Shown here: positions 14,893-60,735 of the stretch, piece after piece | How the letters are laid out: every line of letters begins with the position of its first letter | Position numbering within the stretch: the stretch's first letter is position 1 | Program-made: the position numbers and the translations under genes | Assembly (NCBI GenBank): GCA_963664115.2 | Contig: CAXWPJ010000009.1 | Span: 960,001 to 1,024,000 of the forward strand | Direction of reading: 5' to 3' | DNA length: 64,000 bases | Origin: Terriglobia bacterium | Lineage (GTDB): Bacteria; Acidobacteriota; Terriglobia; 20CM-2-55-15 | Notes under the pieces: model-generated | The model's database searches: none | What the model saw: only the letters and a program-made list of their open reading frames with translations | What the model was told of the DNA's origin: nothing

Positions 14893-15006
14893 CAAAGGAT
14901 TAAAATAAATTGTCATTAATAGATGTAAATAGCCATAAATAGCTAATTTGTATCAGTTTGTACTGAGGCTTTGTCGGCCAGATCACCCGAAGTCGAGGAG
15001 GAACTA

Positions 15007-16872: not shown

Positions 16873-16979
16873 TTCCGGTGAATCAATGATATTGACGGGA
16901 GCCGGGCGGTGGGAACAACGCCGCCCCCCGGTCCTGGATCTCGGATAGTTCGGTTTCATAGAAAGTTTTGGAGGGGAAG

Positions 16980-18449
16980 ATGCTAAAGCCACTCGGGAAT
17001 ATGACCCGCCGCGAATTGCTGAAAGTAATTGGCCTTGGTGTGGGGGCCACGGCCACTTTCGGAGCTCAGGCTGCTTGGCCGCGTAAGGTTCGAGCACAGA
17101 GCAGGACGGTGACGCCTCGAGCGAATGTGCGCAACGTCATTGTGATTCAGAACGTGGGAGCGATGAGTCCGGCTGAGACCCTGGACTTCAAGGAGTCGAA
17201 GTGGACGCCGAAGGATTTCGACATTCAGAGAGTCAATTCCGAATTCAATATCTCCAAAACTCTTTTTCCGAATTACGAAAAGTGGGCGCCCCGAGCGTCT
17301 CTGGTGCGCTCGATGTACGAGAACGGACTGGTCCACTTTCCGGCGCAGTACCATACGCAGTGTGGACGTGCGTTGAACCCGGCTATTGTGAGGGAAGTTC
17401 CGGCCATGGGCAGCATCGTCGCTTACGAGCTCGAATCCGAGCGTCGAGAGTCCGACACCTTTCCGACATATATCAGCATGGATTTGTGGAACGCGAATTG
17501 TAGTCAGATCGGGCAGGGGATGTTGCCCGCCCAATTTGCAGGATTGGACCTCAACACCAGCACCGTGTTTCAGACCTTCGGGGGTGAAGCAGGCGAAGAA
17601 GATGGGATCGATCCGGTGTTGGCCCGAAGGTGGGAGGCCCTACAGAGAATGTCGGAGGTTTCACCCATAGGACAGAATCCAATCGGAGGGAAAGCCTCCG
17701 AGTACCAGTCGCACTATCAGTACGCCTACAGACTTCTCCAGGACGCTCGGTTTAAGGGAGCGCTCCAGTTGACGGAAGAGGAAAAGGTGCGTTACATGGG
17801 GGATCCCGCCCCTCCAGGTACATGTAAGATCGGTCTTCAGGCATTGCTGGCGCGGAATATACTGGCCGCCGATGCCGGTGCACGATTTCTATGGTTATGC
17901 AACTGCTACTATGGCGGCAATGGTTGTTTCGATAACCACGAGTGGATGTACAGCCGGGACCGCTTAGCGCTGACGAACGGAAGAATATCCATTTACGACA
18001 GCGCCCCGATGCTGGATCGAGCCTTGGGTAATCTCGTCGAGGATCTTTCGACCATGCCCGGCCATGACCCTGAGAAGACACTCCTGGATGAAACGATGAT
18101 TGTCGTGGCCCATGAATTCGGGCGCGATCCTGTCATGAACTCCAACGAGGGCCGGGATCATTGGGGACTGTGTTTCACGGATATGTGGCTCGGCGGAGCC
18201 GTCCAGCCGGGACGGGTGATCGGACGTACGGACGATAGGGGCTGGAAGGTTGTCGACAACGGTTGGAAATATAACGAACAACCGATGCATGATCACGACA
18301 CGTCCACGATTTACTCGTGTTTGGGCATCGATTACTCCAAGGTAATCGAAGATACGCCCTCGGGCCGAGTTTTTGAATACCAGCAGACGGCTCCCCTTGG
18401 AGGCCCGGAATTTATTCCGCTGACCGACATCGAGGAGTTGTTCGTGTAG
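16980..18449 (+). CDS. DUF1501 family protein with Tat signal
   Basis: MTRRELLK twin-arginine; FDNH; HEFGRDP..GRDHW..GGAVQPGRVIGRTD. Confidence 0.85.
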   Translation: MLKPLGNMTRRELLKVIGLGVGATATFGAQAAWPRKVRAQSRTVTPRANVRNVIVIQNVGAMSPAETLDFKESKWTPKDFDIQRVNSEFNISKTLFPNYEKWAPRASLVRSMYENGLVHFPAQYHTQCGRALNPAIVREVPAMGSIVAYELESERRESDTFPTYISMDLWNANCSQIGQGMLPAQFAGLDLNTSTVFQTFGGEAGEEDGIDPVLARRWEALQRMSEVSPIGQNPIGGKASEYQSHYQYAYRLLQDARFKGALQLTEEEKVRYMGDPAPPGTCKIGLQALLARNILAADAGARFLWLCNCYYGGNGCFDNHEWMYSRDRLALTNGRISIYDSAPMLDRALGNLVEDLSTMPGHDPEKTLLDETMIVVAHEFGRDPVMNSNEGRDHWGLCFTDMWLGGAVQPGRVIGRTDDRGWKVVDNGWKYNEQPMHDHDTSTIYSCLGIDYSKVIEDTPSGRVFEYQQTAPLGGPEFIPLTDIEELFV

Positions 18450-18452
18450 GCT

Positions 18453-19325
18453 ATGGGGCGCAAAGTAATATTGACTCTGCTCTGCTGCGTCTGCGCCGCA
18501 TTACCAAGCGCGCCGGCAGCAGCGCAGGCAGCTACCACGCAAACAACGGCTCCCGAAGACATGGCCTTGATCCCTGCAGGTAAGTTCTGGATGGGCCGCA
18601 CCTTCTTCATGATTCTGGAAACGATGGGTGTCCTGGCCCGGGACAGAATGGACACCATTCCCGCCAACCACATTTACTTGGATGCCTTCTATATCGACAG
18701 GTACGAAGTGATTCAAGCGGACTATGCACGATTCCTTGCCGACACGGGCCTTCGGCCGCCGTGGAACTGGCCTCAAGGCGAGATCCCGGAAGGGGAAGGA
18801 CAGGTTCCGGTTTATAACGTCAACTGGTTTGAAGCAAGCGACTACTGCAGGTGGGTCGGCAAACGTCTCCCCACGGAAGCGGAATGGGAGAAAGCCGCGC
18901 GAGGCGGACTCGATCGGGTCCGTTACTCCTGGGGGGACGACGACATCGATGAAAGCGAGTTCAGGCGGAACCCTCCACAAAATTCTGGAACCAAATACGA
19001 CGTCGACCTTCCTGCGGTCCTGGGCGGCGTGCCCCGTCCTCAGCCCGGCGGAACATTTCCGCCCAATGGCTACGGTCTCTACGACATGATTGGAAACGTC
19101 GCGGAGTGGACAAATGATTGGTACTACGACAATTATTATCCCTTCATGCCGAAAGTGAATCCACGGGGACCGGAGACCGGTTTGTACAAGAGTCTTCGAG
19201 GTTCCAGTTTTGCGGGGGGCGGCGCGTTCGGAAATATGTCCGTTTCGAACCATATGCGCGACTTCAGCGATCCTGAACTCCGTACCTCCGGGATAGGTTT
19301 TCGCTGCGCGAGAGACGCGGGCTAG
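18453..19325 (+). CDS. Formylglycine-generating enzyme (SUMF1/EgtB/PvdO) domain protein
   Basis: IPAGKFWMG; RLPTEAEWEKAARGG; NGYGLYDMIGNVAEW; IGFRCA. Confidence 0.88.
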   Translation: MGRKVILTLLCCVCAALPSAPAAAQAATTQTTAPEDMALIPAGKFWMGRTFFMILETMGVLARDRMDTIPANHIYLDAFYIDRYEVIQADYARFLADTGLRPPWNWPQGEIPEGEGQVPVYNVNWFEASDYCRWVGKRLPTEAEWEKAARGGLDRVRYSWGDDDIDESEFRRNPPQNSGTKYDVDLPAVLGGVPRPQPGGTFPPNGYGLYDMIGNVAEWTNDWYYDNYYPFMPKVNPRGPETGLYKSLRGSSFAGGGAFGNMSVSNHMRDFSDPELRTSGIGFRCARDAG

Positions 19326-21641: not shown

Positions 21642-22130
21642 ATGAAGCTTGAAAAACGGATCGTGTTCATGGCCGCGCTGGTGCTCGCAGTGGCCATGCC
21701 GGCATTGGCACAGGTCGAGAAGGCCGCGATGCGGACCACGGGAATCTCCTGCGGTGTTTGCGCTGTCGTATCGGAGGTGAATATCCGACGCATCGAGGGT
21801 GTGGACGAAATCACCATCAGCATGTCCAACGAAACGCTGATGATTTCATATGAGCCTGACGCTCTTTTCGAATCCGTGGAGATTCGCAAGGTTCTCGAAT
21901 CGCTTGACGTTGAAATCACCGTGTTCCAGATCAGCGCGCGCGGCCGTGTCGAGGATCAGGGCGAAAAGCGAATTTTTGTCGCCGGCAGGAACCGGTTTGT
22001 CCTGGCAGCTCCCACTGGAAATGCACCCCGGGTTCCATCCGACACGCCGGTCGTGGTTGAAGCCGTCCTCAACGATCAACTCGATCCCATGGAACTGACC
22101 GTCATGGCCTTCAAGACGGTCCCGCAGTAA
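21642..22130 (+). CDS. Secreted heavy-metal-associated (HMA) domain protein
   Basis: Signal peptide; GISCGVC..IEGVDEITISM. Confidence 0.75.
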   Translation: MKLEKRIVFMAALVLAVAMPALAQVEKAAMRTTGISCGVCAVVSEVNIRRIEGVDEITISMSNETLMISYEPDALFESVEIRKVLESLDVEITVFQISARGRVEDQGEKRIFVAGRNRFVLAAPTGNAPRVPSDTPVVVEAVLNDQLDPMELTVMAFKTVPQ

Positions 22131-22387: not shown

Positions 22388-24559
22388 CTACTGGAAGGCC
22401 TCCGGGACGTTGAAGGTAAATATCGCGTTGTGCGTCTTGTCGGACACGATTACGTTCTGATTCCTGACATCGAGCGTGATGCCGCGTACGTCCTTCAAAA
22501 GGAAGTTCGGCCCGCCGATCGTCAACCGGGGCTCCACGGGACCGTCATCGAAGACACTCCACACACCCACGTAATCGTCCAGCCCGAATCGTCCGCCGCC
22601 TCCGACGTTTCCGAAAATCATCCCGCTCTCCGGATTGACGGTCATCCTCGAAGCTCCGGTATCCGTGATGACCCGGAGCGGCGGCGTGTTGCCCGAAGCC
22701 CTGCGGTCGAATATTCGGAGGTCACCCCCGCCTGAGACGATCATGAGATCGTGCACGGGGTCTATTGTTACCCGGCCCTCCCCACGCAAGCCCGTGTCGG
22801 GTCCTTCCAGGATACGGATGGGCGCCACGTCGCCGTCCGCGTCCCGGTCGAAGACCAGCACCCGGCGGACTTGAGGCACATAAATTTCTCCATTTACGGG
22901 ATCGATGGCCACCCGCTGACTGTTCACCAGTTGCGTGCGGGGTCCCATAATCTGTCGGACGGGCGCCGCGTCGCCATCCGCGTCCCCACGGAAAGTGAGA
23001 ATAGAAAAGTTATACCAACCGGGAACGAGAATTTCATCCCGCACCGGGTCGTAGGCCATGTCGTGAATGGTGCGCGTGAAATTTGTATTCTGTCCGGCAA
23101 TGGAGCGCGTCGCGTCTGTACTTCCATCCGCCAGCCTGGCGAATGCCGCAATCTGCGGGTGGCCCACTCAGTTGGAGCCCAGGATTTCTTCCCTCAGGGT
23201 GTCGTACGCGATCGTATGGACATTGGCGAGCATGGGCCCACGGGAGTCGGCCGGACCACTGCGAATCACGCGCTTGGGAGTGGCATCCCCATCCGCCGTG
23301 ATGTCATACACGGTTGCTGAGTGACTGCCCAGATTGGCGACCCACAGCTCGTCGTTTATCAGGTCTACCTTCACCCCGACAGGGTTTTTGATCAAGGAGT
23401 TGGGACCCTGGAGGACTCGAATAGGCGCGGCGTCGCCGTTCGCATCGGCGCTGTAAACCGTCACGGTGTGGCCGGTGTCGTTCGCGACGAAAATCTCGCC
23501 CCGGTCCGGATGCACCGCAATATCGGTCGGCCAGTTCAGCAAGGTGTTGGGACCCTGGATCACTCGTATTGGCGCGACATTACCGGCCCCATCCTTGCGG
23601 TAGACGGTAATGGAGGGCGGTTCGGTCCGTCCCGATCCCGGAATGTTGGCCAAGCGCGAGACGGGCCAGTTGGGTTTTCCAGTGCCACGATTGAAGACGG
23701 CCGGCGTGTCTTCGTCATAATAGCGATCCGCCGCCGTGCCCCAGTTGCTGACATAAAGCAGGCCCGTGTTCGGGTCCAGGGCGATCCCATGGGGATCGGC
23801 CATTCGGGTGGCCGGCCCCTGGATCAACCGCACCGGCGGCTCTTCGTCCTGGGCCGCTTTCCGAAAGACCGAGACCGCATGATCATCCTGGACGGTCATG
23901 AAGATTTCCTGGGTGGCTTCATCGATGGCCATCCGGACGGTCGTATGCGGCGTGGCGAGTTTCCGCTTCGGCGCCACATTGCCCTGGGCATCACGGCCCC
24001 ACACCGTCATCCAGTTCAAGGTGTCATTGTTGATGGCATAGATGTCGCCGCTTCCGGGGTCGACATAGATACCGCAAACGTATTCCAGGAAGGTGTCTTC
24101 TCCCTGAATGACCCGTCTGGGTTCGCTGAACGCTGCGGTTGGCGGTGTATTCGTATTTCGGTCGTAGACGACGATGCTGAAATTGTTCTCGTCCCCAGCG
24201 ACAAGTTCATTCCGGATGGGGTCGATGTCAATGGCTGCAAACACATGACGGGAGTCATGAATCGTACGGATCGGCGGCCTTGTCGCCACCGCCGCCTTGA
24301 CCGCTTCACTCGGCCGGGGGGGCGGGTCCGTAGCTGCCGCCGCTTGCCCGGCGCCTTGCACCAGTGCCATCAGATTCTCTGGCGTGCGGGCCCCAGCCAT
24401 CAGAGTTTCCGGGCCGACTTCGGGCGTTCGTTCCTCCCCAATTAAATTCGTCTGCCCGTTTCCGTCCGGCCCCAGCTGCTCGTGTTGAGGCAGCGCGCCC
24501 ACGGTCACCGACAGACATAAAATCAGTGTGATCACTAAAACCCACTGCCGTGCTTTCAT
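22388..24559 (-). CDS. Putative secreted beta-propeller selenoprotein, copy 1 (723 aa, Sec464 at 23168-23170)
   Basis: ORFs 23168-24574 and 22388-23167 abut in frame across TGA (ILGSN*VGHPQ); GGAGG RBS, signal peptide, ~12 NHL-like repeats; hairpin 3' of the UGA; terminal stop TAG. Confidence 0.85.
23125..23167 (-). promoter_or_regulatory. Putative bacterial SECIS element, copy 1
   Basis: UGA-GUGGGCCACCCGCAGAUUGCGG-CAUUCGCC[AGGCU]GGCGGAUG; 30 nt separate the UGA from the loop. Confidence 0.75.
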
Positions 24560-24925: not shown

Positions 24926-27142
24926 CTACTGGAAGGCCTCCGGGACGTGGAAGGTAAATATCGCGTTGTGGGTCTTATCGGACGCGATTACGTTCTGATT
25001 ACTGACATCGACGGCAATGCCACGGACGTCCTTCAGGAGGACGTTCGGACCGCCGATCGTCCACCGGGGCGGAACGGGACCGTCATCGAAGACGCTCCAC
25101 ACACCCACATAGTCTGACAGGCTGTATCGCCCCATGAGGGATCGGACTTCGGGAGGCAGTTCAGGATCTGGCTCGATATCCATAGATCCAGTTGCGAACA
25201 TCATCCCGCTCTCCGGATCGATAGCCCGGACCCCACCGCCACCTTCGATGAACCGGAGCGGCGGGGTGTTTCCCGAAGCTGTGCGATCGAAGATTCGGAT
25301 GCCGCCGCCACCCGAGACGACCAGGAAACCGTGCACGGGGTCGACCGCTACCCGGCCCTCCCCACGCAAGCCCGTGTCGGGTCCCTCCAGGATCCGGATG
25401 GGCGCCACATCGCCGTCCGCGTCCCGGTCGAAGACCAGCACCCGGCGAGGTTGAGGAACGAAAATCTCTCCGTTTACGGGATCGACGGCCACGCGCTGAC
25501 TATTCACCAGTTGCGTGCGGGGTCCCATAATCTGGCGGACGGGCGCCGCATCGCCATCCGCGTCCGCGCTGAATGTGAGAATAGAAAAGTTATACCAACC
25601 CGGTACGACGATTTCATCCCTCACCGGGTCGTAGTCCATGCCGTGAATCGTACGGCTGAAGAGCGTGTTTTGTCCTGCAATGGACCGTGTCGCCTGTGTG
25701 CTTCCATCCGCCAGCCTGGCGAATGCCGCAATCTGCGGGTGGCCCACTCAGTTGGAGCCCAGTATCTCCCCTCTCCGGGAGTCGAACGTGATCGTATGGA
25801 CGTTGGCGAGCATGGGTCCGCGGGAGTCGGCGGGACCGCTGCGAATCACGCGCTTCGGGGTGGCGTCCCCGTTGGCCGTAATGTCGTACACGGTCGCGGA
25901 GTGACTGCCCAGATTCGCAACCCACAGCTCGTTGTTCGTCAGGTCGACCTTCACGCCGACAGGGTGTTGGATCAAGGTGTTGGGACCCTGGAGGACTCGA
26001 ATAGGAGTGGCGTTGCCGTCCGCACCGGCGCTGTAAACCGTCACGGTGTGGCCGGTGTCATTCGCGACGAAGATCTCGCCCCGTTCCGGATGCACCGCTA
26101 TATCGGTCGGCCAGTTCAGCAAGGTGTCGGGACCCTGGATCACTTGCAATGGGGCGACGTTGCCGGTCGCGTCCTTGCGGTACACGGTAATGGAGGGCGG
26201 CTCGTTCCTTCCCGATCCCGGAATGTTGCCTTCGCGCCCGGCCGGCCAGTTGGCTTTTCCATCTCCCTGACCTCTCGTGGTCAACCCAAGGTCATAGTAG
26301 CGGTCCGCCACCGTGCCCCAGTTGGTGACGTAAAGCAGGCCCGTGTTCGAGTCCACGGCGATCCCGTGAGGATCGGCCAATTGGGTGGCCGGCCCCTGGA
26401 TCAGCCGCAGCGGCGACTCGTCGTCCTGAGCCGTTTTCCTGAAGACCGAGACCGCATGGTCATCCTGGACCGTCATGAAGATTTCCTGGGTGGCTTCATC
26501 GATGGCCATCCGGACCGTCGTGTGGGGGGTGGCGAGTTTCCGCTTCGGCTCCGCATTGCCCTGGGCGTCACGGCCCCACACCGTCATCCAATTCAAGGTG
26601 TCATTGTTGATGGCATAGATGTCGCCGCTCCCCGGGTCGACATAGATGCCGCACACGTATTCCAGGAAGGTGCTGTCTCCCTGTATGACCCGTCGGGGTT
26701 CGCTGAACGCCGCGGTCGGAGGTGTATCCGTCATCCGGTCGTAGACGACGATGCTGAAATTATTCTCGTCGCCGGCTATCAGTTCATTCCGGACGGGATC
26801 GATGTCGATGGCGGCAAACACATGCCGGGCGTCATGGATAGTCCGGATCGGAGGTCGTTGCGCCACCGCGGCCCTTTCCGCCTCACTGGGCCGGGGGGGA
26901 GGCCCCGTTGCTGCTCCCGTTTGCCCGGCGCCTTGAACGAGCGCCATCGGATTCTCTGGAGCGCGGGCCGCAGCTATGAGAGTTTCCGGGGCGGCCATCG
27001 GCTCCGCGGAAACGAGGCTGGCCTCCCCTGTCATTGTTGTCTGCCCGTCTCCGCCCGGCTGCAGCTGCTCGTGTTGCGGCAGCGCGGCCACGGCCACCGA
27101 CAGACATAAAACCAGTGAGATCATTAGAACGCACTGTTTCAT
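24926..27142 (-). CDS. Putative secreted beta-propeller selenoprotein, copy 2 (738 aa, Sec465 at 25748-25750)
   Basis: In-frame ILGSN*VGHPQIAAFARLADG; SECIS-like hairpin at 25705-25725 identical to copy 1; terminal TAG. Confidence 0.85.
25705..25747 (-). promoter_or_regulatory. Putative SECIS element, copy 2
   Basis: Identical to copy 1 in sequence and spacing. Confidence 0.75.
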
Positions 27143-32570: not shown

Positions 32571-32819
32571 CCCAAACAGCGATATAACAAGCGGCTGCAC
32601 CAGACGGCGGCCACGGTATTGTCTTGAACCCTGCCTTGAAAACGATTCTCAACGCCTGTTAAATCATCTTCCCGGACACTGAGAATTGCCAATTTACGGA
32701 GGGTTTTCACTGTCCGAGAATGTCGTTTCCGAGGACTGGAGCCTCTTCTTGCTAATAAATCCTACCTGTCGTTATATTTACGCAGATTTTCGTACTTCGC
32801 ACCGACCGACACTGTAACG

Positions 32820-33835: not shown

Positions 33836-35965
33836 CTACCGGAAGGCCTCCGGGACGTTGAAGGTAAATATCGCGTTGTGTGTCTTGTCGGAAACCATCA
33901 CGTTCTGATTCCTGACATCGAGGGTGACGCCTCGCGCGTCCTTCAAGAGGACGTTCGGCCCGCCGATCGTCCACCGGGGCTCAGTGGGGCCGTCATCGAA
34001 GACGCTCCACACACCCACATAGTCTTCCTCCAGGAATCGCCCGCCGGGACGGACGACTCCGAAAATCATTCCGTTCTCCGGATTGCTGGTCAGCAACGAA
34101 ACTGCTGCCGCTGCATCACCGGTGATGACCCGGAGCGGAGGCGTGTTGCCCGAAGCCGTGCGATCGAAGATCTGGAGCTTGTCGCCGCCCGAGACGATCA
34201 GGAGATCGTGCACGGGGTCTATCGTCAGCCGGCCCGCAGTTAAATTCGTATCGGGTCCCTCCAGAGTCCGGAGGGGCGCCACATCGCCGTCCGCGTCCCG
34301 GTCGAAGACCAGCACCCGGCGGCCCTGGGGAACGAATATCTCCCCATGGACTGCATCTATGGCAAGAGCCTGCGGATTATGTATTTGCGTGCGGGGTCCC
34401 ATAATCTGGCGGACGGGCGCCGCGTCGCCATCCGCGCCCGCGGCGAAGGTGAGAATGGAAAGGTTATACCAACCGGGTACAAGGATCTCATCCCGCACCG
34501 GGTCGTAGGCCATGTCGTGAATCGTGCGTGTGAAATTAGTATTCTGTCCGGCAATGGACCGCGTCGCCGTTGTGCTCCCATCCGCCAGCCTGGCGAATGC
34601 CGCAATCTGCGGGTGGCCCACTCAGTTGCCGCCGAGGATTTCCTCGCGCCGAGTGTCGTACGTGATCGTGTGGACGTTTGCGAGCATGGGCCCGCGGGAG
34701 TCGGCGGGGCCGCTGCGAATCACGCGCGTTGGCGTAGGATCTCCTTCAGCGGTAATGTCATACACGGTCGCGGAGTGACTGCCCAGATTGGCGACCCACA
34801 GCTCGTCGTTGGTCAGGTCCAGCTTCACCCCGACAGGGTGGTTGATCAACGAGTTTGGACCCTGGAGGACTCGAATAGGAGCGGCGTTGCCGTCCGCATC
34901 GGCGCTGTAAACCGTTACCGTATGGCCGGTGTCATTGGCGACGAAGATCTCGCCCCGTTCCGGATGCACCGCGATATCGGTCGGCCAGTTCAGCAAGGTG
35001 TTAGGTCCCTGGATCACCTGCAAGGGTGCGACATTCCCCTGGGCATCCTTGCGGTACACAGTAATGGAGGGCGGCTCGTTCCGTCCCGAACCCGGAATGT
35101 TGGCTTCGCGCCCGACGGGCCAGTTGGCTTTTCCTTCTCCACGATTCAGGGTGGTCGGCGCGTCTGTGTCATAGTGGCGGTCCGCCACCGTACCCCAATT
35201 GGTGACAAAAATCAGGCCCGCGCTCGAGTCCACGGCGATCCCATGGGGATCGGCCAATCGCGTGGCCGATCCCTGGATCAGCCGCACGGGGGACTCTTCG
35301 TCCTCGGCCGATTTCCGAAAAACTGAGACCGCATGATCGTCCTGGACGGTCATGAAGATTTCCTGGGTCGCTTCATCGATGGACATCCGAACGGTCGTGT
35401 GCGGTGTGGCCAGTTTCCTCTTCGGCGCCACATTCCCTTGAGCGTCACGGCCCCAGACCGTCATCCAATTCAAGGTGTCGTTGTTGATGGCATAGATGTC
35501 GCCGCTTTCGGGGTCGATATAGATGCCGCAAACGTACTCCAGGAAGGTGTTCTCTCCCTGAATCACCCGTCTGGGTTCGCTGAACGCAGCAGTTGGCGGT
35601 GTATTCGTCATCCGGTCGTAGACGACGATGCTGAAATTATTTTCGTCGCCAGCGACAAGTTCACCTCGGATGGGGTCGATGTCAATGGCGGCAAACACAT
35701 GACGGGCGTCATGGATCGTACGGATGGGCGGTCTGTTCGCCACCGCCGCTCTTTCCGCCTCGCTCGGCCGGGGGGGAGGGTCCGTAGCCGCTCCTGCTTG
35801 GGCGCCTTCAACCAGCGCCATCAGACTCCCTGGAGCGCTGGCGGCCATCAGAATTGTCTGCCCGTTTCCGTCCGGCCCCAGCTGCCCGTTTTGAGGCAAC
35901 GCGCCGACAGCCACCGACAGACATAAAACCAGTGAGATCATTAAAATCCACTGCCTTGGTTTCAT
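33836..35965 (-). CDS. Putative secreted beta-propeller selenoprotein, copy 3 (709 aa, Sec448 at 34622-34624)
   Basis: In-frame ILGGN*VGHPQIAAFARLADG; hairpin at 34579-34599; terminal TAG. Confidence 0.85.
34579..34621 (-). promoter_or_regulatory. Putative SECIS element, copy 3
   Basis: Identical to copies 1 and 2. Confidence 0.75.
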
Positions 35966-44061: not shown

Positions 44062-44448
44062 TTAGAACAATTCGGGCACGCGGAACGTCAGAACCGAATT
44101 GAGCCTCTTGTCACTGACGATGATGCTCTGGTTCTTCACGTCCAGCGCCACTCCACGTGGCATCTCGAGAACGCCATCGGGTCCACCGATCGTCCACAAC
44201 GGCGGGCCATCGCTGCTCGCTTCATAGCTCCACACACCCAAACAGGAAACAGGATCCGCCAGAGTCTCCCCGACCGGTCGGTTCGTCGCGAAAATGAGTT
44301 TCTTCGGCGGATAGATCGCGAACGGTCCGCCCAGACTGCGGGGGCCTTGGATCGTCATTATCGGGTCGACCTTGCCATTGGCAAGGCGATCATAAAGCAG
44401 GAAAGTGGTCGCGGTCCTGCCCCCGCCCCCACCTCCGGAGGCTGGGGC
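44062..44448 (-). pseudogene. Orphan C-terminal fragment (about 2.5 repeats) of a fifth beta-propeller paralogue
   Basis: FLLYDRLANGKVDPIMTIQGP..LGVWSY..PPLWTIGGP..PRGVALDVKNQSIIVSDKRLNSVLTFRVPELF; same frame as copy 4 but behind four stops. Confidence 0.8.
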
Positions 44449-44466
44449 TTAGCCTGTCCTTCGTGG

Positions 44467-44520
44467 TCAGAAGATCTCCCGCGGTCAGAAGATTACTTCG
44501 GATCAGAAGATCTCTGGAAC
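44467..44520 (-). repeat. Triplicated 18-bp gene end
   Basis: tcagaagat at 44467, 44485 and 44503; reads VPEIF* SEVIF* PREIF* on the minus strand. Confidence 0.8.
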
Positions 44521-46569
44521 CGAAAACACCAGAATGCCGTTCAAGCGCATATCGGAAATAATCACTTCCTGGTCTTCAGGGTTCAATACCACTCCAAAGG
44601 GTTTCTTCAGCGTTGTCGTCGGTCCCGCCGGGAGCTTCCAAAGCGGCGGAATGTCCCCGTTATCTTCGTAGCTCCATACGCCTAAAAAGGCGCCCTCCGG
44701 TTCCATGTGATCTCGAATCCCGGGCATCGCCGCGACGATCAGCTTCCTCTGTGGATAGACCTGCATCTGGTTGATCCGTACAATCCCCGAATTCGGACCG
44801 CGGATTACGGCCCGCGGCTTTACGTTTCCTTCGTCCGTCCGGTTAAACACCAGGAGCGCGCCCCGCTGGGCGTCTGGTGACCGAGAACTACCGAAGGAGC
44901 TGTTTAAGCCGACTACCAGAATGTCGTTGATCGGATCCACGGAAACCACATTAACGGATTCCAAGCCGGTGTCGGGACCCTCGATGATTCGAAGGGGCGC
45001 AACGTCACCGTTGGCTTCGCGCGGATATACCTTAATACTGTTGCCGCTGTAGGTGAAAATCTCGTCGTGAATGGGGTCCACATCCAAGCGGCTGCCTATC
45101 GTTCCGGTCCGGGGGCCCTGTATGATTCGAATGGGTGCTTCCTGTCCATCGGCGCCTCCGCGGAACGTCAGGATCGCCTCTGCAAACGGGTTGGGCACAA
45201 GAAATTCATCGTTGATTTCATCGTAGCGGATGTCGTGCATGGTTCGCGACAGCTTGCTCGCCTGCCCGAAAACGGCCCGTTCGGGTTGCTGTGCTCCGTC
45301 CGCCAGCCTGGCGAACGCCGCAATTTGCGGATGGGCCACTCAGTTGGGCACCAGAATTTGATCCCGTAAGGTGTCGTATCCGACAGCCCCCGGGTTGCCG
45401 ATGTTGAGCGACAGTCTATCCGCCGGTCCAGATCGAATCGTGCGCGATGGGCTAACATCCCCGTTGGCCGTCACCGGGTACACCGTCACCGAGGCATTTC
45501 CCATGTTCGCAACATAGAGTTCGTCGTTGGTGGGATCGACCGTGATTCCGGGCGGATGTTTGATTCCGGTGTTCGGCCCCTTGATGACGCGGATCGGAGC
45601 CACATCACCCTTGTCTGACATCCGAAAAACCAGGACAGAGTCGTCAGCGTCATTCGCAAGGAACAATTCCTGCCGCTCCTCGTGCAAGGCCAGATGCGAA
45701 GGCCAATTCATCAATGTCTGGGGTCCTTCGATGATCCAGAGAGGCTCCGTATTTTCCGACGCCTCCAGGGGATACACGGTGATTGATGGAGACTCGAACT
45801 TCCCCCATTCCCGTGGGCGCGTACCGGCTGGAGAACCGGGCGGTGGCGCCACGGTCTCCCGACCGTTTCCGTAATTGCTCACGAACACCAGGTTGTTACT
45901 CGCATCGATCGCGATCCCGTGGGGATCTTCCAGCTGCGTGTCGTTCCCACGCAACACGCGAAGCGGTTCCTCTTCACCCTCCGCACCCTTCCGATAAACA
46001 TAGACCGCGTTCTGGTGCTGCACCATCAGGAACATCTCCTGTCTCTCTTCGTGCATGGCGATCCCGAAGGTTCCGTGGGGTGTGGCCAGCACCCGCGTCG
46101 GTGTCGCGTTACCCCGGGCGTCGGGAGAAAAAACAGGCAGCCAGTCCTGCGTGTCGTTGTTGACGACGTAAATCTCGCTGGTGACCGGGTCGATATAGAC
46201 CCCGCACATCATCTCCGCAAACGTGTCCGGCCCGGAAATAACCCGTCTCGGCTCCGTGAAAAGTGCCGACGCGGGAGTGTCGGAGCGACTGTCGAACTCC
46301 AGGATCTGAAACAAGTTCTCATCGGTGACGACGAGCATGTTGTTATCCGGATTCACCGCCACCGCGCTTAATGAAGGGTAGGGATCCTTAATAAACCGAA
46401 GCGGGGCCCGTTCGATCAACACGGTCTCTCGATCTCCTCCGCCCTGCGCGTATGCGACCTCTGAAATCTTCCAACTTCCAACCACGATTGCATCCGCTAG
46501 CGACACGATCAAGCCGAGGCAAATCGTCGATAGCAGCCAGATCCTCCAGTTATGACCACCTTGATTCAT
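44503..46569 (-). CDS. Putative secreted beta-propeller selenoprotein, copy 4, divergent (688 aa, Sec410 at 45340-45342)
   Basis: AAGGAGG RBS, start MNQGG; in-frame ILVPN*VAHPQIAAFARLADG; hairpin with compensatory change at 45297-45317. Confidence 0.85.
45297..45339 (-). promoter_or_regulatory. Putative SECIS element, copy 4
   Basis: CGUUCGCC[AGGCU]GGCGGACG: the A-U pair of copies 1-3 is replaced by G-C. Confidence 0.8.
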
Positions 46570-46890: not shown

Positions 46891-49137
46891 CTATCTAAAG
46901 ACCTCCACCTGGCGGGAGTACTTGACGATGAGATTGCGATTGATGGGACCCAGCCCGTGCAGTCCCTGGATCTCGTTATAGACGACGTACAATCCGGTGC
47001 CGGCGGTGCTCAGCCAGCCAAAGCGGAAGTTTCCGCTCCAGGTACTTGCCCGGTCGTTGTACTGGACCAACGACTGAAAGTTGATCCGTGGTGAGAGGCT
47101 GTAGTTGAGACGAGCCTGCAGCAAGTTGGTTACGAAGTCGCCTTGCGGGAGCTTGACATCGCTGCGCCGCCAGCTGAAGGATGTATTGATCGTGGCCCCG
47201 GCCCGGGCGTTCGCACCCACCGAGAACGTGCGCTCGCTTCCGGTATAAAAGCCACCGACAACCGAAGACCAATCCAGAGACAGCACCTGGCTCCGGTCTG
47301 TACGCAATCGAAAGTCGAGCTGCGGATGTCGGTACTGGCCTGGAGGTATGACCACTCCGGGAGAAATCTCGAACGGTTCATGAAGCCCTTCCATATTAAT
47401 GTTCACGATCGGGCCCAAAAACCAGCCGTTTTCGAAATCGATGCTGGGATCCAGATGGATCTGTTGGGTTTCCATAAAGCCTTCGAAATCCCAATACGTC
47501 CGGATTTGGGCATGGGGCCGAATTTCTCGAAGCCACCCCAGGTTCGGGAAGCGAATGTTCTTCCCTCCCGCGAGGTCAAAAAACCGGTAGTTCTTGCGTG
47601 TCAGGAATCCGACCTCGGGATTGAAGTCATCTCCGACCTGTGAAAATTCGGAACGCAGGTATCCACCCCTCTGCTGGTACTGAGCCCGGACGTCGTAGGC
47701 GGACTCCGGACCCGTTCGACCGGGTGTTTCCGTGCGCGCTATGAACCCGTTGATATCCGTGTATTGGCCGATGCCGAGTTTAGCGTCGACGCCCCAGGTC
47801 CGGTTCCAGTTGTCGGGGATCGAACCCGCCGCCTCACGATTGACAAAAATGCCGCCAAGGCTGGAGCGGTTCGGAAGCTCCCTGCTCACACGCGCTACGG
47901 TGAAGTTGTTCTTGGCTGTGACAAAAGGAACGTCGTCAGTCTCCATGTTGAGCAACCCGACGTTAAACTGCCCCACCTTTCCGCTCAAACGGGCACCTCC
48001 AATGATGGGTACAGCGGCCCCGGAGGGATCGAGACCGATACGGCGGCTGAAAAACAGATCAATGCCGGATTTTCCTGCCGCGAACAAACCGGCATTCTCA
48101 AGGAAAAACGAGCGTTTCTCTGGAAAACGGACACTGAACCGGGTCAGGTTGATCACCTGCTCGTCCACCTCGACCTGCGCGAAATCCGTGTTGTAGGTCA
48201 CATCCAGATTCAGGCTCGGCGTGACACCGAACTTGGCGTCGAAACCGATGTCGCCGTCATAATCCGACTCAGTTTCCGCGGTGTTTGCGAAGTTTCGTGA
48301 GGCTGTGCCGGTCACATAGGGTGTTACGTTGAAATTGCGTGGGGTCTCCAGTTCCAGTCCCTGCAGTTCTCCGGCCGACGACAGTCGATACAGGTTGTAG
48401 ATGCGCTCGATCGGAGCCCAGAAAACCTCTTCGTTCTTCCGCCGAATATTGCGTTGAAAGTTCACACCCCAGGTCTGGGGTCGGTCACCGTAGCGCAGGC
48501 TTCTCAAAGGGATTTCGAACTCGGCCGTCCAGCCCGATTCGTTGACTTCGGTACGCACCGTCCAACTGGTGTCCCAGTTCAGGTTAAAACCGGAACCCGA
48601 GGTCACGGCGGCCCGGCCCTGGACCGCGCGCGTACCCTCGCCTTCGTTGCTGACCTGGCCGTCAAATTCGATCCCCGCGGGATTCGTGCCAAAGACGAAG
48701 CCGTTCTGCCGATCGTGGTAGGTGTCGAAGATGACTTGAAAGGAATCGGTGTCGTTCATTCCCGAATCCCGCCTGCTGTCGGTCACCCGAATCAGCCCCG
48801 GTTCGCTGTCATAGCAGATCACACTGATAAAGATGGCGCGACTGTTGTACAGAATCCGAACGACGGTCTCTTCGGATGCGGGGGTGCCTTCGACCGGCTC
48901 GGTCTGCACAAACCCGGTAATCGGTGTGGCGAGTTCCCAAACTGCGTCGTCGACAATGCCGTCGATCACCGGAGGTGTCTCGACGAAAGTCGCGCTGGCG
49001 ATCGGCACGGGTCCCTGTGCCGCCCCGGGAGTAGTCGCGAGGAGAACGGCCATTATGGCGACGATCGCGCCAAACATCGTCCGCAAGTTGAACTCCTTAA
49101 CGTGTTGTCCGCTGGGGTTGGGGGCCTGCCCAAGCAA
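46891..49137 (-). CDS. CBM9-like + DUF5916 outer-membrane protein (start uncertain, possibly 49077)
   Basis: PVIDG..W; FDTYHDRQNG; WTAEFEIP; NTDFAQVEVD..NLTRF..FPEKRSFFLE; FFSRRIG. Confidence 0.85.
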   Translation of the reverse strand: MLGQAPNPSGQHVKEFNLRTMFGAIVAIMAVLLATTPGAAQGPVPIASATFVETPPVIDGIVDDAVWELATPITGFVQTEPVEGTPASEETVVRILYNSRAIFISVICYDSEPGLIRVTDSRRDSGMNDTDSFQVIFDTYHDRQNGFVFGTNPAGIEFDGQVSNEGEGTRAVQGRAAVTSGSGFNLNWDTSWTVRTEVNESGWTAEFEIPLRSLRYGDRPQTWGVNFQRNIRRKNEEVFWAPIERIYNLYRLSSAGELQGLELETPRNFNVTPYVTGTASRNFANTAETESDYDGDIGFDAKFGVTPSLNLDVTYNTDFAQVEVDEQVINLTRFSVRFPEKRSFFLENAGLFAAGKSGIDLFFSRRIGLDPSGAAVPIIGGARLSGKVGQFNVGLLNMETDDVPFVTAKNNFTVARVSRELPNRSSLGGIFVNREAAGSIPDNWNRTWGVDAKLGIGQYTDINGFIARTETPGRTGPESAYDVRAQYQQRGGYLRSEFSQVGDDFNPEVGFLTRKNYRFFDLAGGKNIRFPNLGWLREIRPHAQIRTYWDFEGFMETQQIHLDPSIDFENGWFLGPIVNINMEGLHEPFEISPGVVIPPGQYRHPQLDFRLRTDRSQVLSLDWSSVVGGFYTGSERTFSVGANARAGATINTSFSWRRSDVKLPQGDFVTNLLQARLNYSLSPRINFQSLVQYNDRASTWSGNFRFGWLSTAGTGLYVVYNEIQGLHGLGPINRNLIVKYSRQVEVFR

Positions 49138-54863: not shown

Positions 54864-54901
54864 GCGAAGCTTCAGTATCGGAACGTGTACTGAAGCTTCG
54901 C
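54864..54901. terminator. Hairpin between convergent genes
   Basis: Perfect 14-bp IR gcgaagcttcagta/tactgaagcttcgc overlapping the 3' end of the 54872 gene. Confidence 0.5.
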
Positions 54902-57202
54902 CGATACTTTGCTCTCTTGGGCACTGAATCGATAATCCTCCTCCGGATTCTGAATCCACCCCTGGCTGAACACAAAGAATAAGTCGTTGCCGGGCCGCAG
55001 GGTCCATCGGGCACGGCTCTGCCAGCCCAGATTCCGGGACTTGTTGTCGTATTGAATTAGATTCGAGAAAGACAGAAAGGGCGTGGGTGCATAGTTCGCA
55101 CGCCAGGTCAGGATTCGGGCCACGAAATTGCCTTCGGGCAAGCGGGCGAACGTCTGGTTGGCACTGAAACTTATCGTGAACCAGGGCGGGATCTTGTAAG
55201 AGAGCGAGACGTTGACTTCGTCCGCGCTCCCCGACCAATAGTTACCTATTCCCCAAAGAAAGCTTGCCTGCAACCTGCGCTTCGAAGCACTTGACACGTT
55301 AAAAATACTCAAGCGTGTAAAGCGGTATTCACCCGGAGGAAGAGTGACGCCGGGGAAAATCTCAAACGGGGCGAACAAGCGCTCGTACTTAATGGATGGC
55401 CAGAAGAGCCTGTGAAGACTGTCACCGGACCTGAAGTGCCAGTCGATCGGCCCCGGGAAGTGAAGGTTCCAGCTCTCGACTTCTCCGTTGTCGAGACGTG
55501 TGAACCGGTTGTAGAACGCGCCCATGAACATCTGCTGCAGGCCCAGGAATTCCTTCGGGCGGGGATTATAGCGGCCTCCTATCCTGAGGAGCCTCAGGTT
55601 CCTACGCCCGACCCTGCCAAGGCTGGGTCTGAAATTCTCCTGAACGTCGCGCCAGGTAAATTCCATCTCGATGAGGTCGTTTGGATAATCCACCGAGACA
55701 CCATAGGACAAGTCCCGGTCGGAAACACCTTCATTCCTGCTCTTGAGACCGAAGGCGTTGAAGATCAGATTCTTCGAATTGCCCAGGAACTGGGAGGTTG
55801 CCAGACGCAGGTCTGCCCCGAAGGTCTGGCTCGACACCGGGAGCGCCGGGTTACCGTTCGTGAAAATCCCTCCGATATAGCTTTGCTCCAACAAATTCAC
55901 TTTCATCCGTCCTACAAAAAAATTCTTCGAGGGAAGGCCCGGCAAGTCGCGTGTGCGGACGTCCAGCACGCCGATGTCGGTTCGACCGACTTTACCGGTG
56001 AACTTTGTTCCAAAATCGATGGGCACCTCTGTTCCGGAAAGCAATCCGATCCGGCGGCTGAAAAACGGGTTGACTTCAAACCGGGTCGGGGCCAGGAAAC
56101 CCGGTTCCCTCACCGAGGTATCGGAAAAGGCAAAGACTCCGGCATCCTCCAGGAAGAACGTTCTCTTTTCAGGGAAGAACAATGAGAAGCGCGAAAGATT
56201 GATCTGGCGCGTGTCCACTTCCGTTTCCCCGAAATCGGTGTTCGCGGTCGCGGATATCTTCAGGTTGGGGGTGATGTTGTAGAACAGGTCGAGCCCCGGC
56301 CTGCCGGTGATCGTATCGTTCCCATTGGCGTTGGTATGCAGCCAACGGCCGCTGGTGAAAGGCCGGATATCCAGTCCGATGCCCTGTGTGATGCCGTCGA
56401 GGTTGGTGATTTCACCGGCTTCCGATACCTGAAGAAACGGGGTTTCCAAACGCGCTCCGGACCAGCGATCGTCCTCCAGCTTTCGCTGGATGCGCCGAGC
56501 GATGTTGAAGCCCCAGTCCGTCCCCCCGGAAGCAAAAGCCAGACTCTTGAACGGAATTGCGAATTCGGCGGACCAACCCTGATCCGTGCGCTGGATCCGC
56601 ACGTCCCAGATAGCATCCCAGTCCATGTTCGACTGACCGTTTGCGAACAGGAGGCCGTCTACGAGAGCGCCAGCCGGATTCGTAGCAAAATAAAAGGCGT
56701 TGCGCTGGTCCCGATATGTGTCGAGCAGGATCTCAATCCGGTCGTCGGAATTCAGGTTGGCATCGCGCGCCATCTGTGTCCCGATGATCGCATCCGGGGC
56801 GGAGTCGTAGCACATGACGCCGATGTAGAGATAGTTCTGATCGCGGAGCAAGGTGACCTCCGTCCTCTCCGTCGGCCTCTCTCCGTTGTTCGGTTCCCTC
56901 TGTGTCAACTCGCCAATCTTGGGTGCGTTCTGCCATGCCAGTTCGTCGAGCGAGCCGTCAACTGTAATTTCCGACGTGATCTCAGTGACAATTGCAGATC
57001 GCGGCTGCTCTGACAGACCCAACTCCTGAAGCAGCGCACCCGCCATCGCCGGTACTGTGATGAAGATCCATATGAGGACGAGTGGCAGGATCCACCCGAA
57101 TCGGGGCCAGCGTCTATGGATCTTGCCTGCAAGATCGTGGCGCGAGGTGGAAGTCGATCTAAGCGTATTCACGACATCGACGGGTCCAAGGGGTGTCTGC
57201 AT
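54872..57202 (-). CDS. CBM9-like + DUF5916 outer-membrane protein (start uncertain)
   Basis: Same motifs as 46891-49137 (NTDFGETEVD, FPEKRTFFLE, FFSRRIG). Confidence 0.85.
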   Translation of the reverse strand: MQTPLGPVDVVNTLRSTSTSRHDLAGKIHRRWPRFGWILPLVLIWIFITVPAMAGALLQELGLSEQPRSAIVTEITSEITVDGSLDELAWQNAPKIGELTQREPNNGERPTERTEVTLLRDQNYLYIGVMCYDSAPDAIIGTQMARDANLNSDDRIEILLDTYRDQRNAFYFATNPAGALVDGLLFANGQSNMDWDAIWDVRIQRTDQGWSAEFAIPFKSLAFASGGTDWGFNIARRIQRKLEDDRWSGARLETPFLQVSEAGEITNLDGITQGIGLDIRPFTSGRWLHTNANGNDTITGRPGLDLFYNITPNLKISATANTDFGETEVDTRQINLSRFSLFFPEKRTFFLEDAGVFAFSDTSVREPGFLAPTRFEVNPFFSRRIGLLSGTEVPIDFGTKFTGKVGRTDIGVLDVRTRDLPGLPSKNFFVGRMKVNLLEQSYIGGIFTNGNPALPVSSQTFGADLRLATSQFLGNSKNLIFNAFGLKSRNEGVSDRDLSYGVSVDYPNDLIEMEFTWRDVQENFRPSLGRVGRRNLRLLRIGGRYNPRPKEFLGLQQMFMGAFYNRFTRLDNGEVESWNLHFPGPIDWHFRSGDSLHRLFWPSIKYERLFAPFEIFPGVTLPPGEYRFTRLSIFNVSSASKRRLQASFLWGIGNYWSGSADEVNVSLSYKIPPWFTISFSANQTFARLPEGNFVARILTWRANYAPTPFLSFSNLIQYDNKSRNLGWQSRARWTLRPGNDLFFVFSQGWIQNPEEDYRFSAQESKVSAKLQYTFRY

Positions 57203-58449: not shown

Positions 58450-60735
58450 TCAAAATCGGTGCGTGTAGATGATCTTCGAGGCTGCTTTGCGGTCGATTGT
58501 CTCGATGCGGGCGGCTTGAGCGATGTCGCCCGGGTTGTCCCGCCAGTTCTGCGTGTAGACGAAGTATATGTCGTTCCCGGGTTTCATGATCCAGCGGAAA
58601 CGCGCCTGCCAGCCGATGATACGGCTCAGAGTGTCGTATTGCAGATTGCTCGCCAGCGATATCCACGGGCTGAACTGTTTGTTGACTTGAGATTGCAGCA
58701 GGCTTGTCGAGAAGCTGCCTTCCCCCAGCTCGACGCGGTTGAACTGTCCGCTGAGGTTGATCACGAGACCGACCTGCGGGCGGATCTCCAGGCGCGGCTC
58801 AAACGCCCGTCGAGTCCCGCTGAAGTAATCGCCCCAGGAATAATCGCCGCCGATCGCGAAGACGCGCTGGTTGCTTGTGCTCCAGGAAACTTCGAAGCGC
58901 GTGAAACGGTATTCCGAGCCCTGGGGCAGGACAATGTCACCCTGGGGCTGGCGGAAGTCGCGCTCGAGGCGTTCATATTCCCGGGAGATCTCAAACTGAA
59001 CGCCGTCCCCGGCATGGGTGCCGACTGAGAGGGGCGAAAAGCGGATGCGGCGCGACAGCAGCGTGTTCGACGAACTGGTGATCCGGTTCACGTTGACGCC
59101 GAAGGAGTACTGCCGGATCACGGGGTGGTTGTCCGGACGGGGCGCTATCGTCAGACCGGTGACCACTTCCTTGATACCGCTCCGGTCATTGAAGCCTACG
59201 GCGGGATCGAAATTCGCCTCCCTTAGGTTCCCGCGGAGACTTGCGTTGATCAGGTCATTCGGGTAGGTAATCCCGAAGGAGCCGCGCGAACTCTTGCCGG
59301 TGCCCGCAGGGTTCGACGTATAGACCATGTCCCCCCGAAACCGCAGGTTTTTGTCTCCCAGAAAAGTCCGGGTGGTGAGATTGTAGTCGAAGGCGATCGT
59401 GTGGCGGGGGTCCGGGACCCCTGAACCCCCGAGTGCGCCGATGGTGTCACTTGCTCTCGCCGCACGACGGGTGTAGAGCATCCCGATCATGGACTCGCTC
59501 CAGAAGCGCTGGGTCCCCCGGAGGATCGTGAAGTCCTCACCGAGCCGGCCGCCCTCTTCTGCGGTCCGCACCTGCATCGCTCCGATATCGTGCGCCCCGA
59601 TCTGTCCGGTCAGTTTTGCCCCGTATTCGATACGCTGCGGTACGCCTTCGTTCAAGCCGATGCGACGGCTGAAAAACGCCTGGAACGGAGTGGCGAGATC
59701 GAAGTAGTTGCTGCCTTCGAGAAAGAATTCGCGCTTTTCCGGGAATCGGATAGGGAATCGCGTGAGGTTGACCTGGCGATCATCGACCTCGGTTTCGGCA
59801 AAGTCCGTGTTGAGCGTGACGCTGGCCCTCAGGTTGGGTGTCACCGCGTAGACGATATCGAGTCCCGTGTCGCCGGTGTAGAGGGTCTGGTTGTTGGGAT
59901 CGGGTCTGCGGGAATCGTAGAGGCCCGAACCCACGACATACGGTTTGACGTCAATGCCAATTCCCTGGTCCACCTCAGACACGTTTGTGAGCAAACCCGC
60001 ATTCGACATGGTTCTCAGGTCCTGGTTCCGGGCGAATCCGTTCCATATGCTTTCTTCGTTCTTCCGGCGGACGGTCCGCTGGAAGTTGATGCCCCAGGCC
60101 GTGCCGTCCGGATTGAAGTTGAGTGTCCGAAAGGGGATCTCGATCTCGGCGATCCACCCGATCTCGGTCCGGCGTATGCGCGCTGTCCAGATCCCGTCCC
60201 AGGCCCGCTGCTGCTCGCCTGCCGGAAAAACCAGGCTGTCGCCCATGGATCCGGAAGGATTGATCTCGAAGAAATAGCCGGACCTTTCGTCCAGATAGGT
60301 GTCGAAGACCCACATGAATCGATCTCCTGAAGAGAGCGCGGCGTCTCGCAACATCGTGTTGCCCATCATGCCTTCGGGGTCGCGGTCGTAACAGATGACA
60401 CCCATGTAGAGGGTGTCCTCGGAGTAGACAATCCGGACCTCCGTGCGTTCGGTGGCCGGCGCGCCGTTGTCCGGATCGACTTGAATGAAATCGGACGCGG
60501 GCTCCGGGCGTTCCCAGAGGGTCTCGTCGAGCACCCCATCCAGATCGATAGCTTCACCCGGCCCGAGCCTGTAGGCCGACACGATTCGGCGGTCGGCGAA
60601 GTCCTCCAGAATGCGCTGCGAGGCGTCGAGAGGTGCTGTCAGCAGGATCGAAACACACAAGAACGGCAATAAGAACAGGTGCGGTAAACGTTTCGGTGCC
60701 GCTCCGTTTCTCAAACGAAGGTCTCCTCGATCCAT
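58450..60735 (-). CDS. CBM9-like + DUF5916 outer-membrane protein
   Basis: NTDFAETEVD; FPEKREFFLE; FFSRRIG; C-terminal IYTHRF. Confidence 0.85.
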   Translation of the reverse strand: MDRGDLRLRNGAAPKRLPHLFLLPFLCVSILLTAPLDASQRILEDFADRRIVSAYRLGPGEAIDLDGVLDETLWERPEPASDFIQVDPDNGAPATERTEVRIVYSEDTLYMGVICYDRDPEGMMGNTMLRDAALSSGDRFMWVFDTYLDERSGYFFEINPSGSMGDSLVFPAGEQQRAWDGIWTARIRRTEIGWIAEIEIPFRTLNFNPDGTAWGINFQRTVRRKNEESIWNGFARNQDLRTMSNAGLLTNVSEVDQGIGIDVKPYVVGSGLYDSRRPDPNNQTLYTGDTGLDIVYAVTPNLRASVTLNTDFAETEVDDRQVNLTRFPIRFPEKREFFLEGSNYFDLATPFQAFFSRRIGLNEGVPQRIEYGAKLTGQIGAHDIGAMQVRTAEEGGRLGEDFTILRGTQRFWSESMIGMLYTRRAARASDTIGALGGSGVPDPRHTIAFDYNLTTRTFLGDKNLRFRGDMVYTSNPAGTGKSSRGSFGITYPNDLINASLRGNLREANFDPAVGFNDRSGIKEVVTGLTIAPRPDNHPVIRQYSFGVNVNRITSSSNTLLSRRIRFSPLSVGTHAGDGVQFEISREYERLERDFRQPQGDIVLPQGSEYRFTRFEVSWSTSNQRVFAIGGDYSWGDYFSGTRRAFEPRLEIRPQVGLVINLSGQFNRVELGEGSFSTSLLQSQVNKQFSPWISLASNLQYDTLSRIIGWQARFRWIMKPGNDIYFVYTQNWRDNPGDIAQAARIETIDRKAASKIIYTHRF

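Follow-up and report, generated by a model that had tools for sequence, protein, structure and literature searches.

A probable SECIS hairpin behind in-frame UGA codons in an expanded family of predicted double NHL propellers from Acidobacteriota

The window analysed here is the whole stretch of 64,000 nucleotides, corresponding to G000:C9:960001-1024000, where G000 stands for the source genome. Its minus strand carries four copies of a gene that each appear as two open reading frames divided by a TGA. If this TGA is read as a residue, the two frames of each copy merge into a single frame of 688-738 codons whose N-terminus is hydrophobic. The genes and their features are given below, with signed positions counted from the first nucleotide behind the UGA.

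44503..46569, minus strand: copy 4 gene, 688 codons with the UGA read through, hydrophobic N-terminus, predicted double six-bladed NHL-type propeller
45340..45342, minus strand: copy 4 in-frame UGA, codon 410, putative selenocysteine (Sec)
45297..45317, minus strand: copy 4 distal hairpin of probable SECIS type, +23..+43, 8-pair stem, loop A-G-G-C-U, invariant G+32 at 45308
45319..45329, minus strand: copy 4 core of the proximal mini-helix, +11..+21, 3 pairs (the 5-pair version of the first-pass annotation spans 45318-45330)
46204..46206, minus strand: copy 4 Cys122 (model residue 79), second cysteine
45235..45246, minus strand: copy 4 Arg442 and His445 (model residues 399 and 402), invariant in Cys and UGA forms
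33836..35965, minus strand: copy 3 gene, 709 codons, UGA at 34624-34622
34579..34611, minus strand: copy 3 hairpins, proximal core 34601-34611, distal 34579-34599
24926..27142, minus strand: copy 2 gene, 738 codons, UGA at 25750-25748
25705..25737, minus strand: copy 2 hairpins, proximal core 25727-25737, distal 25705-25725
22388..24559, minus strand: copy 1 gene, ATG at 24559, frame open from 24574, UGA at 23170-23168
23125..23157, minus strand: copy 1 hairpins, proximal core 23147-23157, distal 23125-23145

The peptide around the UGA reads Asn-UGA-Val-x-His-Pro-Gln-Ile-Ala-Ala-Phe-Ala-Arg-Leu-Ala-Asp in the four copies. The final codons of copy 4 recur behind its end as two short in-frame repeats (44449-44503), and the open frame just behind this copy (44062-44451, minus strand) covers no more than the last blades of a further paralogue; this frame is likely a duplication remnant. 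Metatranscriptome contigs from four libraries of two studies match parts of copies 3 and 4, one of them with 0 differences across the UGA (45316-45452, with just 24 nt on one side). Because carry-over of DNA is possible, these contigs were not counted as proof of expression. A 34-nt stretch at 32586-32619, single in G000, is shared by contigs of three RNA runs whose flanks are unlike, and is possibly a mobile-element end or a repeat in relatives.

The first-pass annotation had described a SECIS-like hairpin in which two silent changes preserve a base pair. Its reading of the minus strand is correct base for base, with C-A-UUCGCC[AGGCU]GGCGGA-U-G in copies 1-3 and C-G-UUCGCC[AGGCU]GGCGGA-C-G in copy 4, where GCA>GCG together with GAT>GAC converts pair +24:+42 from A-U to G-C. 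The 22 nt between UGA and distal stem, the codon AGG for the arginine in the loop and the upstream motif CCGCA-[GA]AU-UGCGG were likewise found in all four copies. Since copies 1-3 are close paralogues, the window holds a single compensatory event; covariation among four copies alone is weak and could not by itself carry the claim of recoding. The folding energy of the hairpin did not stand out from dinucleotide shuffles, of which 24-39 in 200 were as good (z -0.84 to -1.18). Compared with synonymous recodings of the same peptide, the window copies fold at -18.4 to -19.8 versus -10.2 +/- 2.7 kcal/mol, and only 2-5 of 2000 recodings are as low in energy. The significance of the hairpin comes from the family-wide comparison.

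This comparison used 254 distinct sequences with DNA from genomes and metagenomes, with TGA at the site in 242, TGC in 11 and TGT in one. Five sites at locus ends, four TGA matches scoring 40-55 bits and everything below 30 bits, which belongs to other blades, were dropped before counting. The protein tree was built without the hairpin region and has 230 UGA tips; 12 of the 254, being short genes, were left out. Whether UGA homologues lack the stem was a question raised with the original observation, and over the 242 UGA sites pairing in the eight-pair stem reaches 95.8%, compared with 33-63% after sliding it by 1-3 nt. Individual pairs are intact in 230-242 of the sites, except +24:+42 (187/242). 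The loop nucleotide G+32 is invariant (242/242), position +33 is G in 226 and U in 16 sites, and A+31:U+35 can pair in 211. The arginine codon is AGG in 222 of 233 UGA sites, compared with 7.2% elsewhere in these genes, a background taken from the first 180.

The pair noticed in the window, +24:+42, shows 12 compensatory double changes on the tree and uses all four Watson-Crick pairs. No other two columns within +1..+90 have as many: the runner-up has 7, and 752 pairs of comparable variability average 0.98. Pair +24:+42 is also broken on 23 branches and paired in just 187 of 242 sites, and is therefore peripheral. Its same-branch double changes, 16 against 10.1 under the null, are a modest excess that 118 of 5000 random placements reach. 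Pair +27:+39 gives a cleaner signal: all five of its double changes are compensatory, from C-G to U-A, a count matched by 0 of 5000 random placements. Pairs +28:+38 and +29:+37 show one compensatory change each, each costing two amino-acid substitutions. At the protein level the tenth codon behind the UGA, which lies over the stem, encodes Ala in 235/242 UGA forms versus 58/110 Cys forms, and the peptide covering the stem is freer in the Cys homologues.

Of the proximal hairpin, originally described with five pairs, a core of three stood, whereas the outer and inner pairs break without compensation. The core pairs +11:+21, +12:+20 and +13:+19 are paired in 236-238 of the 242 sites. The outer pair +10:+22 is paired in 199 and broken on 18 branches, the inner pair +14:+18 is paired in 189 and broken on 30, with 0 compensatory changes. 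We see the chances as evenly balanced that the three-pair mini-helix folds just outside the mRNA channel of the ribosome, is stacked against the distal stem and makes the 22-nt spacer shorter. Such compaction would place the loop where SelB finds it in the other selenoprotein mRNAs of G000.

Alternatively, only the distal hairpin matters, and the proximal pairs are a by-product of the conserved peptide Pro-Gln-Ile-Ala or of a preference for certain sequences beside the ribosome. We regard this as a real possibility, though we lean away from it. It fits the uncompensated loss of the outer and inner pairs, the lowest-energy fold of copies 1-3, which favours an alternative pairing at +1..+13, and the position of the distal loop, which by itself lies inside the published range of 16-37 nt. 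The region +1..+13 would sit in the ribosome channel while the UGA is decoded, according to the accessible text of PMC4513850. Codon usage in the core argues for a role of the mini-helix: Pro is CCG in 237/240 (48% in the background) and Ala is GCG in 227/231 (37%), and the third positions +12 and +21 change on only 3 and 5 branches versus 20-87 downstream. The core further shows three compensatory events, all altering amino acids and confined to two small groups of sequences (Gln-Ala to Arg-Ser, and Pro CCA with Val GTG), which 5 and 0 of 5000 random placements reach. Moreover, a consensus fold of 220 sequences keeps two pairs of the core beside the distal stem.

A scan of G000 for UGA followed by a hairpin, as proposed with the original observation, yielded eight further candidate selenoprotein genes: SelD, two AhpC/TSA, two deiodinase-like, OsmC, rhodanese and DUF411. 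Six of them (L288-L293, on G000 C2, C9, C12, C5 and C10) encode the two AhpC/TSA proteins (UxxC), the deiodinase-like proteins (one with EF-hands), the OsmC-like and the rhodanese-like protein, each with a hairpin at +18..+27. The DUF411 gene (G000:C5:202565-203158, plus strand) has its in-frame TGA in a U-G-C-C motif with the loop G of the hairpin at +18. It may be another uncatalogued selenoprotein, as DUF411 is unnamed in the 119-family table in the available portion of PMC13188914. A formate dehydrogenase, sought in G000 for comparison, gave no match over the cut-off and no internal stop.

The idea of a lineage-specific two-hairpin SECIS did not hold within this genome. SelD and the seven other UGA-plus-hairpin genes have one closer hairpin, with the loop G at +18 to +27 and the stem starting at about +10 to +20. 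Because these eight genes differ, the far loop (+32) and the mini-helix are traits of the propeller family. Hairpin shape alone is not specific, since a loose SECIS descriptor matches 242 of the 156,377 TGA triplets in G000. A read-through scan by codon score had 3 of the 13 family paralogues of G000 among the matches listed and missed SelD; the total of about 21 candidate selenoprotein genes, of which the propeller family makes up 13, is therefore a lower bound from the two scans combined.

The host protein was modelled from 114 sequences with Sec represented as Cys (pLDDT 95.8, pTM 0.94). The model consists of twelve four-stranded blades, and its halves match six-bladed NHL propellers with Z 27-30 and rmsd 2.1-2.7 A over 246-264 residues. 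Together with PF01436 (NHL repeat), which scores above its cut-off in all four window proteins, this predicts a double six-bladed NHL propeller of about 700 residues. A hydrophobic segment precedes the first propeller in 187/207 proteins, which are likely exported. Searches of the window proteins against Pfam and NCBIfam gave no enzyme family above cut-off except generic NHL and lactonase-propeller models; with regard to 6-phosphogluconolactonase, the SGL lactonases and the PAL lyase, PF10282 exceeds its Pfam cut-off over a partial stretch only, and NF008258 reaches 27-33 bits against a cut-off of 370. By sequence, the PDB returned only the designed Pizza6 and the NHL domain of TRIM3.

The model places the Sec in blade 7, in the loop that follows its second strand. 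From the usual topology of propellers we take this loop, with Arg442, His445, His413, Cys122, His165 and His217, to lie on the top face. Arg442 and His445 are invariant in the Cys homologues (110/110), and in UGA forms the His is kept in 230/230 and the Arg in 100%. Several histidines of the top-face loops are conserved, in model numbering His174 (97%), His370 (91%), His402 (100%; His445 of copy 4) and His122 (204/230). The family has no CxxU or UxxC motif. Cys122 is found in just 165/223 UGA forms and 22/121 Cys forms, so there is no obligatory redox pair. Among 344 sequences (about 198 effective), the top coevolving pairs are top-face loop positions of both propellers and probably reflect subfamily structure.

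We consider it an open bet with equal weight on both sides that the family acts as periplasmic enzymes with a selenol nucleophile and paralogue-specific substrates. The second propeller would present the selenol on a loop of its top face, close to the invariant Arg and His, Cys122 would be an optional partner, and the paralogues, which vary in top-face residues, would differ accordingly in substrate. The main alternative, possible though on the unlikely side, is that the Sec is a ligand for a soft metal (Cu, Hg or Ag) at a top-face site rich in His, so that the protein would bind or handle metal and turn over no substrate. The conserved histidines of the top-face loops, the second Cys that is not obligatory and a heavy-metal-associated-domain-like gene near 10 of 122 loci (CopZ/MerP matches below cut-off) are consistent with such a site. 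However, a set of dozens of diverged paralogues whose top-face residues vary is more in keeping with diversified substrates than with a single metal, and the neighbours are mixed, including an amidohydrolase, a molybdo-oxidoreductase, a methyltransferase and likely TonB-dependent receptors near 26/122 loci.

No neighbour gene is constant among the 122 loci. In the window, a TonB-dependent-receptor-like outer-membrane barrel (PF25183; 27653-31003, plus strand) lies between copies 2 and 3, and a heavy-metal-associated-domain-like gene (21642-22130, plus strand) is convergent with copy 1. Upstream of copy 1 (14971-19325, plus strand) are DUF1549/DUF1553, DUF1501 and formylglycine-enzyme-like genes, the last GldK/EgtB/SenA-like with all matches below cut-off. 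Three DUF5916 paralogues, two with a CBM9-like domain, occupy 46891-49137, 54872-57202 and 58450-60735 on the minus strand. At several loci (9/122), a small protein with two CxxCH motifs is encoded directly behind the family genes; the example at L080:976-1488 (minus strand) is membrane-anchored and has no Pfam or NCBIfam match.

The family is patchily distributed and was found in 31/401 genomes of the class, 9/137 of another class and 2/301 of an even phylum draw. G003, of the same genus as G000 and 95% complete, has selA, and no family member was found in it with this query. UGA copies were counted with a motif that recovers 13/13 in G000 and 229/242 known sites with 0 control hits. It matched in 36 of 47 chosen genomes, with the highest counts in G403 (36), G001 (28), G004 (27), G367 (24), G340 (23) and G002 (20); one 3.8-Mb chromosome holds 24 UGA copies. 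The copy number of this family is far above the usual counts for a single selenoprotein family.

Among the best 120 protein matches 111 are full length, with Cys at the UGA column in 110 and Trp in one, and eight of the nine short ones end exactly before this column. In the ESM Atlas, the C-terminal half of a Cys homologue finds unnamed or generic NHL clusters, mostly from Acidobacteriota. The 12 TGC/TGT genes among the 254 site sequences fall in five lineages nested among UGA forms. Nine of the 12 still have all nine pairs intact, L073, L217 and L103 have lost 3-4 of 9, and in a Cys clade of eight the loop AGG is changed to AGA in four. Parsimony gives 19 Sec-to-Cys and 7 Cys-to-Sec changes, on a midpoint-rooted tree without outgroup and with 110 Cys proteins known without DNA. 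In bacteria, Sec-to-Cys reversion is called rare in the accessible part of a 2026 review (PMC13188914). One apparent natural split between the propellers (L244/L250, G149:C1) was rejected, as the gene carries a local duplication with a shift of frame, and its UGA and hairpin, further downstream, are intact; it is an assembly error or a broken gene.

The genome G000 is equipped for Sec incorporation. It has selA, selB, selC and selD, all over cut-off, with tRNA-Sec (selC) at 71.6 bits against a cut-off of 47 and a TGA within selD itself. All 13 full-length paralogues of G000 found by tblastn carry TGA at the same column and the distal hairpin behind it. More widely, selA or selB is present in 33 of the 36 genomes with the UGA motif; the remaining three are 69-88% complete and were checked for selB only. 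It is very improbable that a changed code or a suppressor instead puts Trp, Cys or Gly at the UGA, or that the genes are pseudogenes. One full-length homologue in 111 does have Trp at the column, but TGA is the commonest stop of long frames, ending 544 of 1128 G000 ORFs of more than 400 codons, so the code is standard, and tRNA-Sec is the only one of 52 tRNAs with a UCA anticodon. Random decay is excluded because one TGA stands at the same column in 242 distinct sites. We rejected as improbable in the extreme a true stop with restart at the GUG behind it, where two proteins are made and the hairpin tunes termination or restart: codon +1 is GTG in 222/242 and databases list the halves separately (25/150 representatives, among those listed, end at the site), but 20/242 have another codon (AAT/AAC in 3), a Shine-Dalgarno-like word lies upstream in 0/242, the stop would cut blade 7 mid-way and lose the only Cys position that is invariant, a signal peptide is missing from the second half and the database halves are products of gene callers.

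The in-frame UGA is thus very likely recoded as Sec, as judged from sequence comparison, and the hairpin is very probably a real bacterial SECIS of known kind. SelB carrying Sec-tRNA would bind the G-containing loop and insert selenocysteine at the UGA, so that each split-looking gene would yield one likely exported protein of about 700 residues with two six-bladed propellers. The first-pass claim that covariation is RNA-level evidence for recoding was borne out by the 242 sites, the tree, the Cys homologues and the Sec machinery.

Each half of the protein shares the fold of known six-bladed NHL propellers, namely TRIM71 (9jur), TRIM2 (7qrv), Lin41 (6fpt), NHLRC2 (6g7w), Brat (1q7f) and peptidyl-hydroxyglycine lyase (3fw0), with Z 26-30 and rmsd 2.1-3.5 A over 246-280 aligned residues. 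Identity to these structures is 13-18%. The family differs from them by its tandem of two propellers, for which the best Foldseek match over the whole chain reaches a TM of about 0.35, by invariant Sec/Cys, Arg and His residues and by likely export. The likeness of fold shows no function.

With catalogued selenoprotein families the genes share a single Sec, Cys homologues, a SECIS in the coding region and the Sec machinery. Table 1 of PMC13188914, in the portion available, has no propeller, NHL or lactonase family among its 119, and term searches of the accessible text of PMC13326102, PMC12013277, PMC2398784 and PMC9312934 found no NHL or propeller terms. NCBIfam 20.0 gave no seleno-family HMM match for the four window proteins and nothing near cut-off. 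Literature searches returned no description of the family in the texts accessible to them. Deng 2026 (Cell Rep) reportedly lists 'potentially novel candidates' from groundwater genomes. Prior mention of the propeller family is possible there, in the supplements of the deep-Sep, GOS and review papers and in Haft 2025 (mSystems), though the families of the last are tabulated in PMC13188914. The host family is apparently uncatalogued and highly expanded. We put forward tentatively, at slightly less than even confidence, that undescribed exported double-propeller selenoenzymes make up most of the selenoproteome in several uncultured Acidobacteriota, with a two-helix SECIS whose mini-helix compacts the spacer, a Sec-His-Arg site unlike thioredoxin-type motifs and many reversions from Sec to Cys.

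This would add a family of likely exported selenoproteins of 700 residues, outside the thioredoxin type, whose genes are cut into two by gene callers, and the copy numbers would move some Acidobacteriota among the selenium-richer bacteria (the top ten genomes of BSepDB have 46-63 selenoprotein genes). The 242 natural variants are an unusually deep covariation set for a single bacterial SECIS and allow a direct test of SelB reaching a loop 31 nt from the UGA. The loss of recoding can be traced stepwise in paired Sec and Cys forms, whose hairpin is intact, mutated in the loop or decayed.

An Rfam scan of the window at gathering score gave 0 matches. The published bacterial SECIS (bSECIS) model, as set out in the accessible text of PMC13188914, places the element in the coding region 3' of the UGA, with a loop of 3-9 nt, an upper stem of 4-16 pairs, a G within the first two positions of the loop that mostly precedes G/U (N1-G-[G/U]-N-N2 with N1:N2 paired), 16-37 nt from UGA to loop and an energy of at most -7.5 kcal/mol. 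The distal hairpin agrees with it in every sequence criterion: it lies in the coding region directly 3' of the UGA, with both flanks aligning to Cys homologues, has a loop of 3 or 5 nt, a stem of 8-9 pairs, G+32 and G/U at +33 in 242/242, A+31:U+35 in 211/242 and a UGA-loop spacing of 30-31 nt, and folds at -12.7 kcal/mol in copy 4 and -11.3 in copies 1-3. The weakest of the 13 paralogues (C10) has -7.2. It differs from the model in its loop near the far end of the range, the missing lower stem, the separate 3-pair helix ahead of the stem and a near-invariant primary sequence common to up to 36 genes per genome. With the SECIS of E. coli fdhF it shares a stem-loop behind the UGA, a critical loop G (PMC8659212, accessible text) and a lower part that has to open in the ribosome channel (PMC4513850, accessible text). 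The fdhF upper stem starts 11 nt from the UGA and has a bulged U17 and G23-U24 (PMC8659212); in the propeller family, unlike fdhF, the stem is unbulged and begins after 22 nt, and G-G stands in the loop in 226/242. On these sequence features, the hairpin is not of the fdhF type. The RNA signal itself is very probably of known kind, with the far loop and a likely extra mini-helix as family-specific additions.
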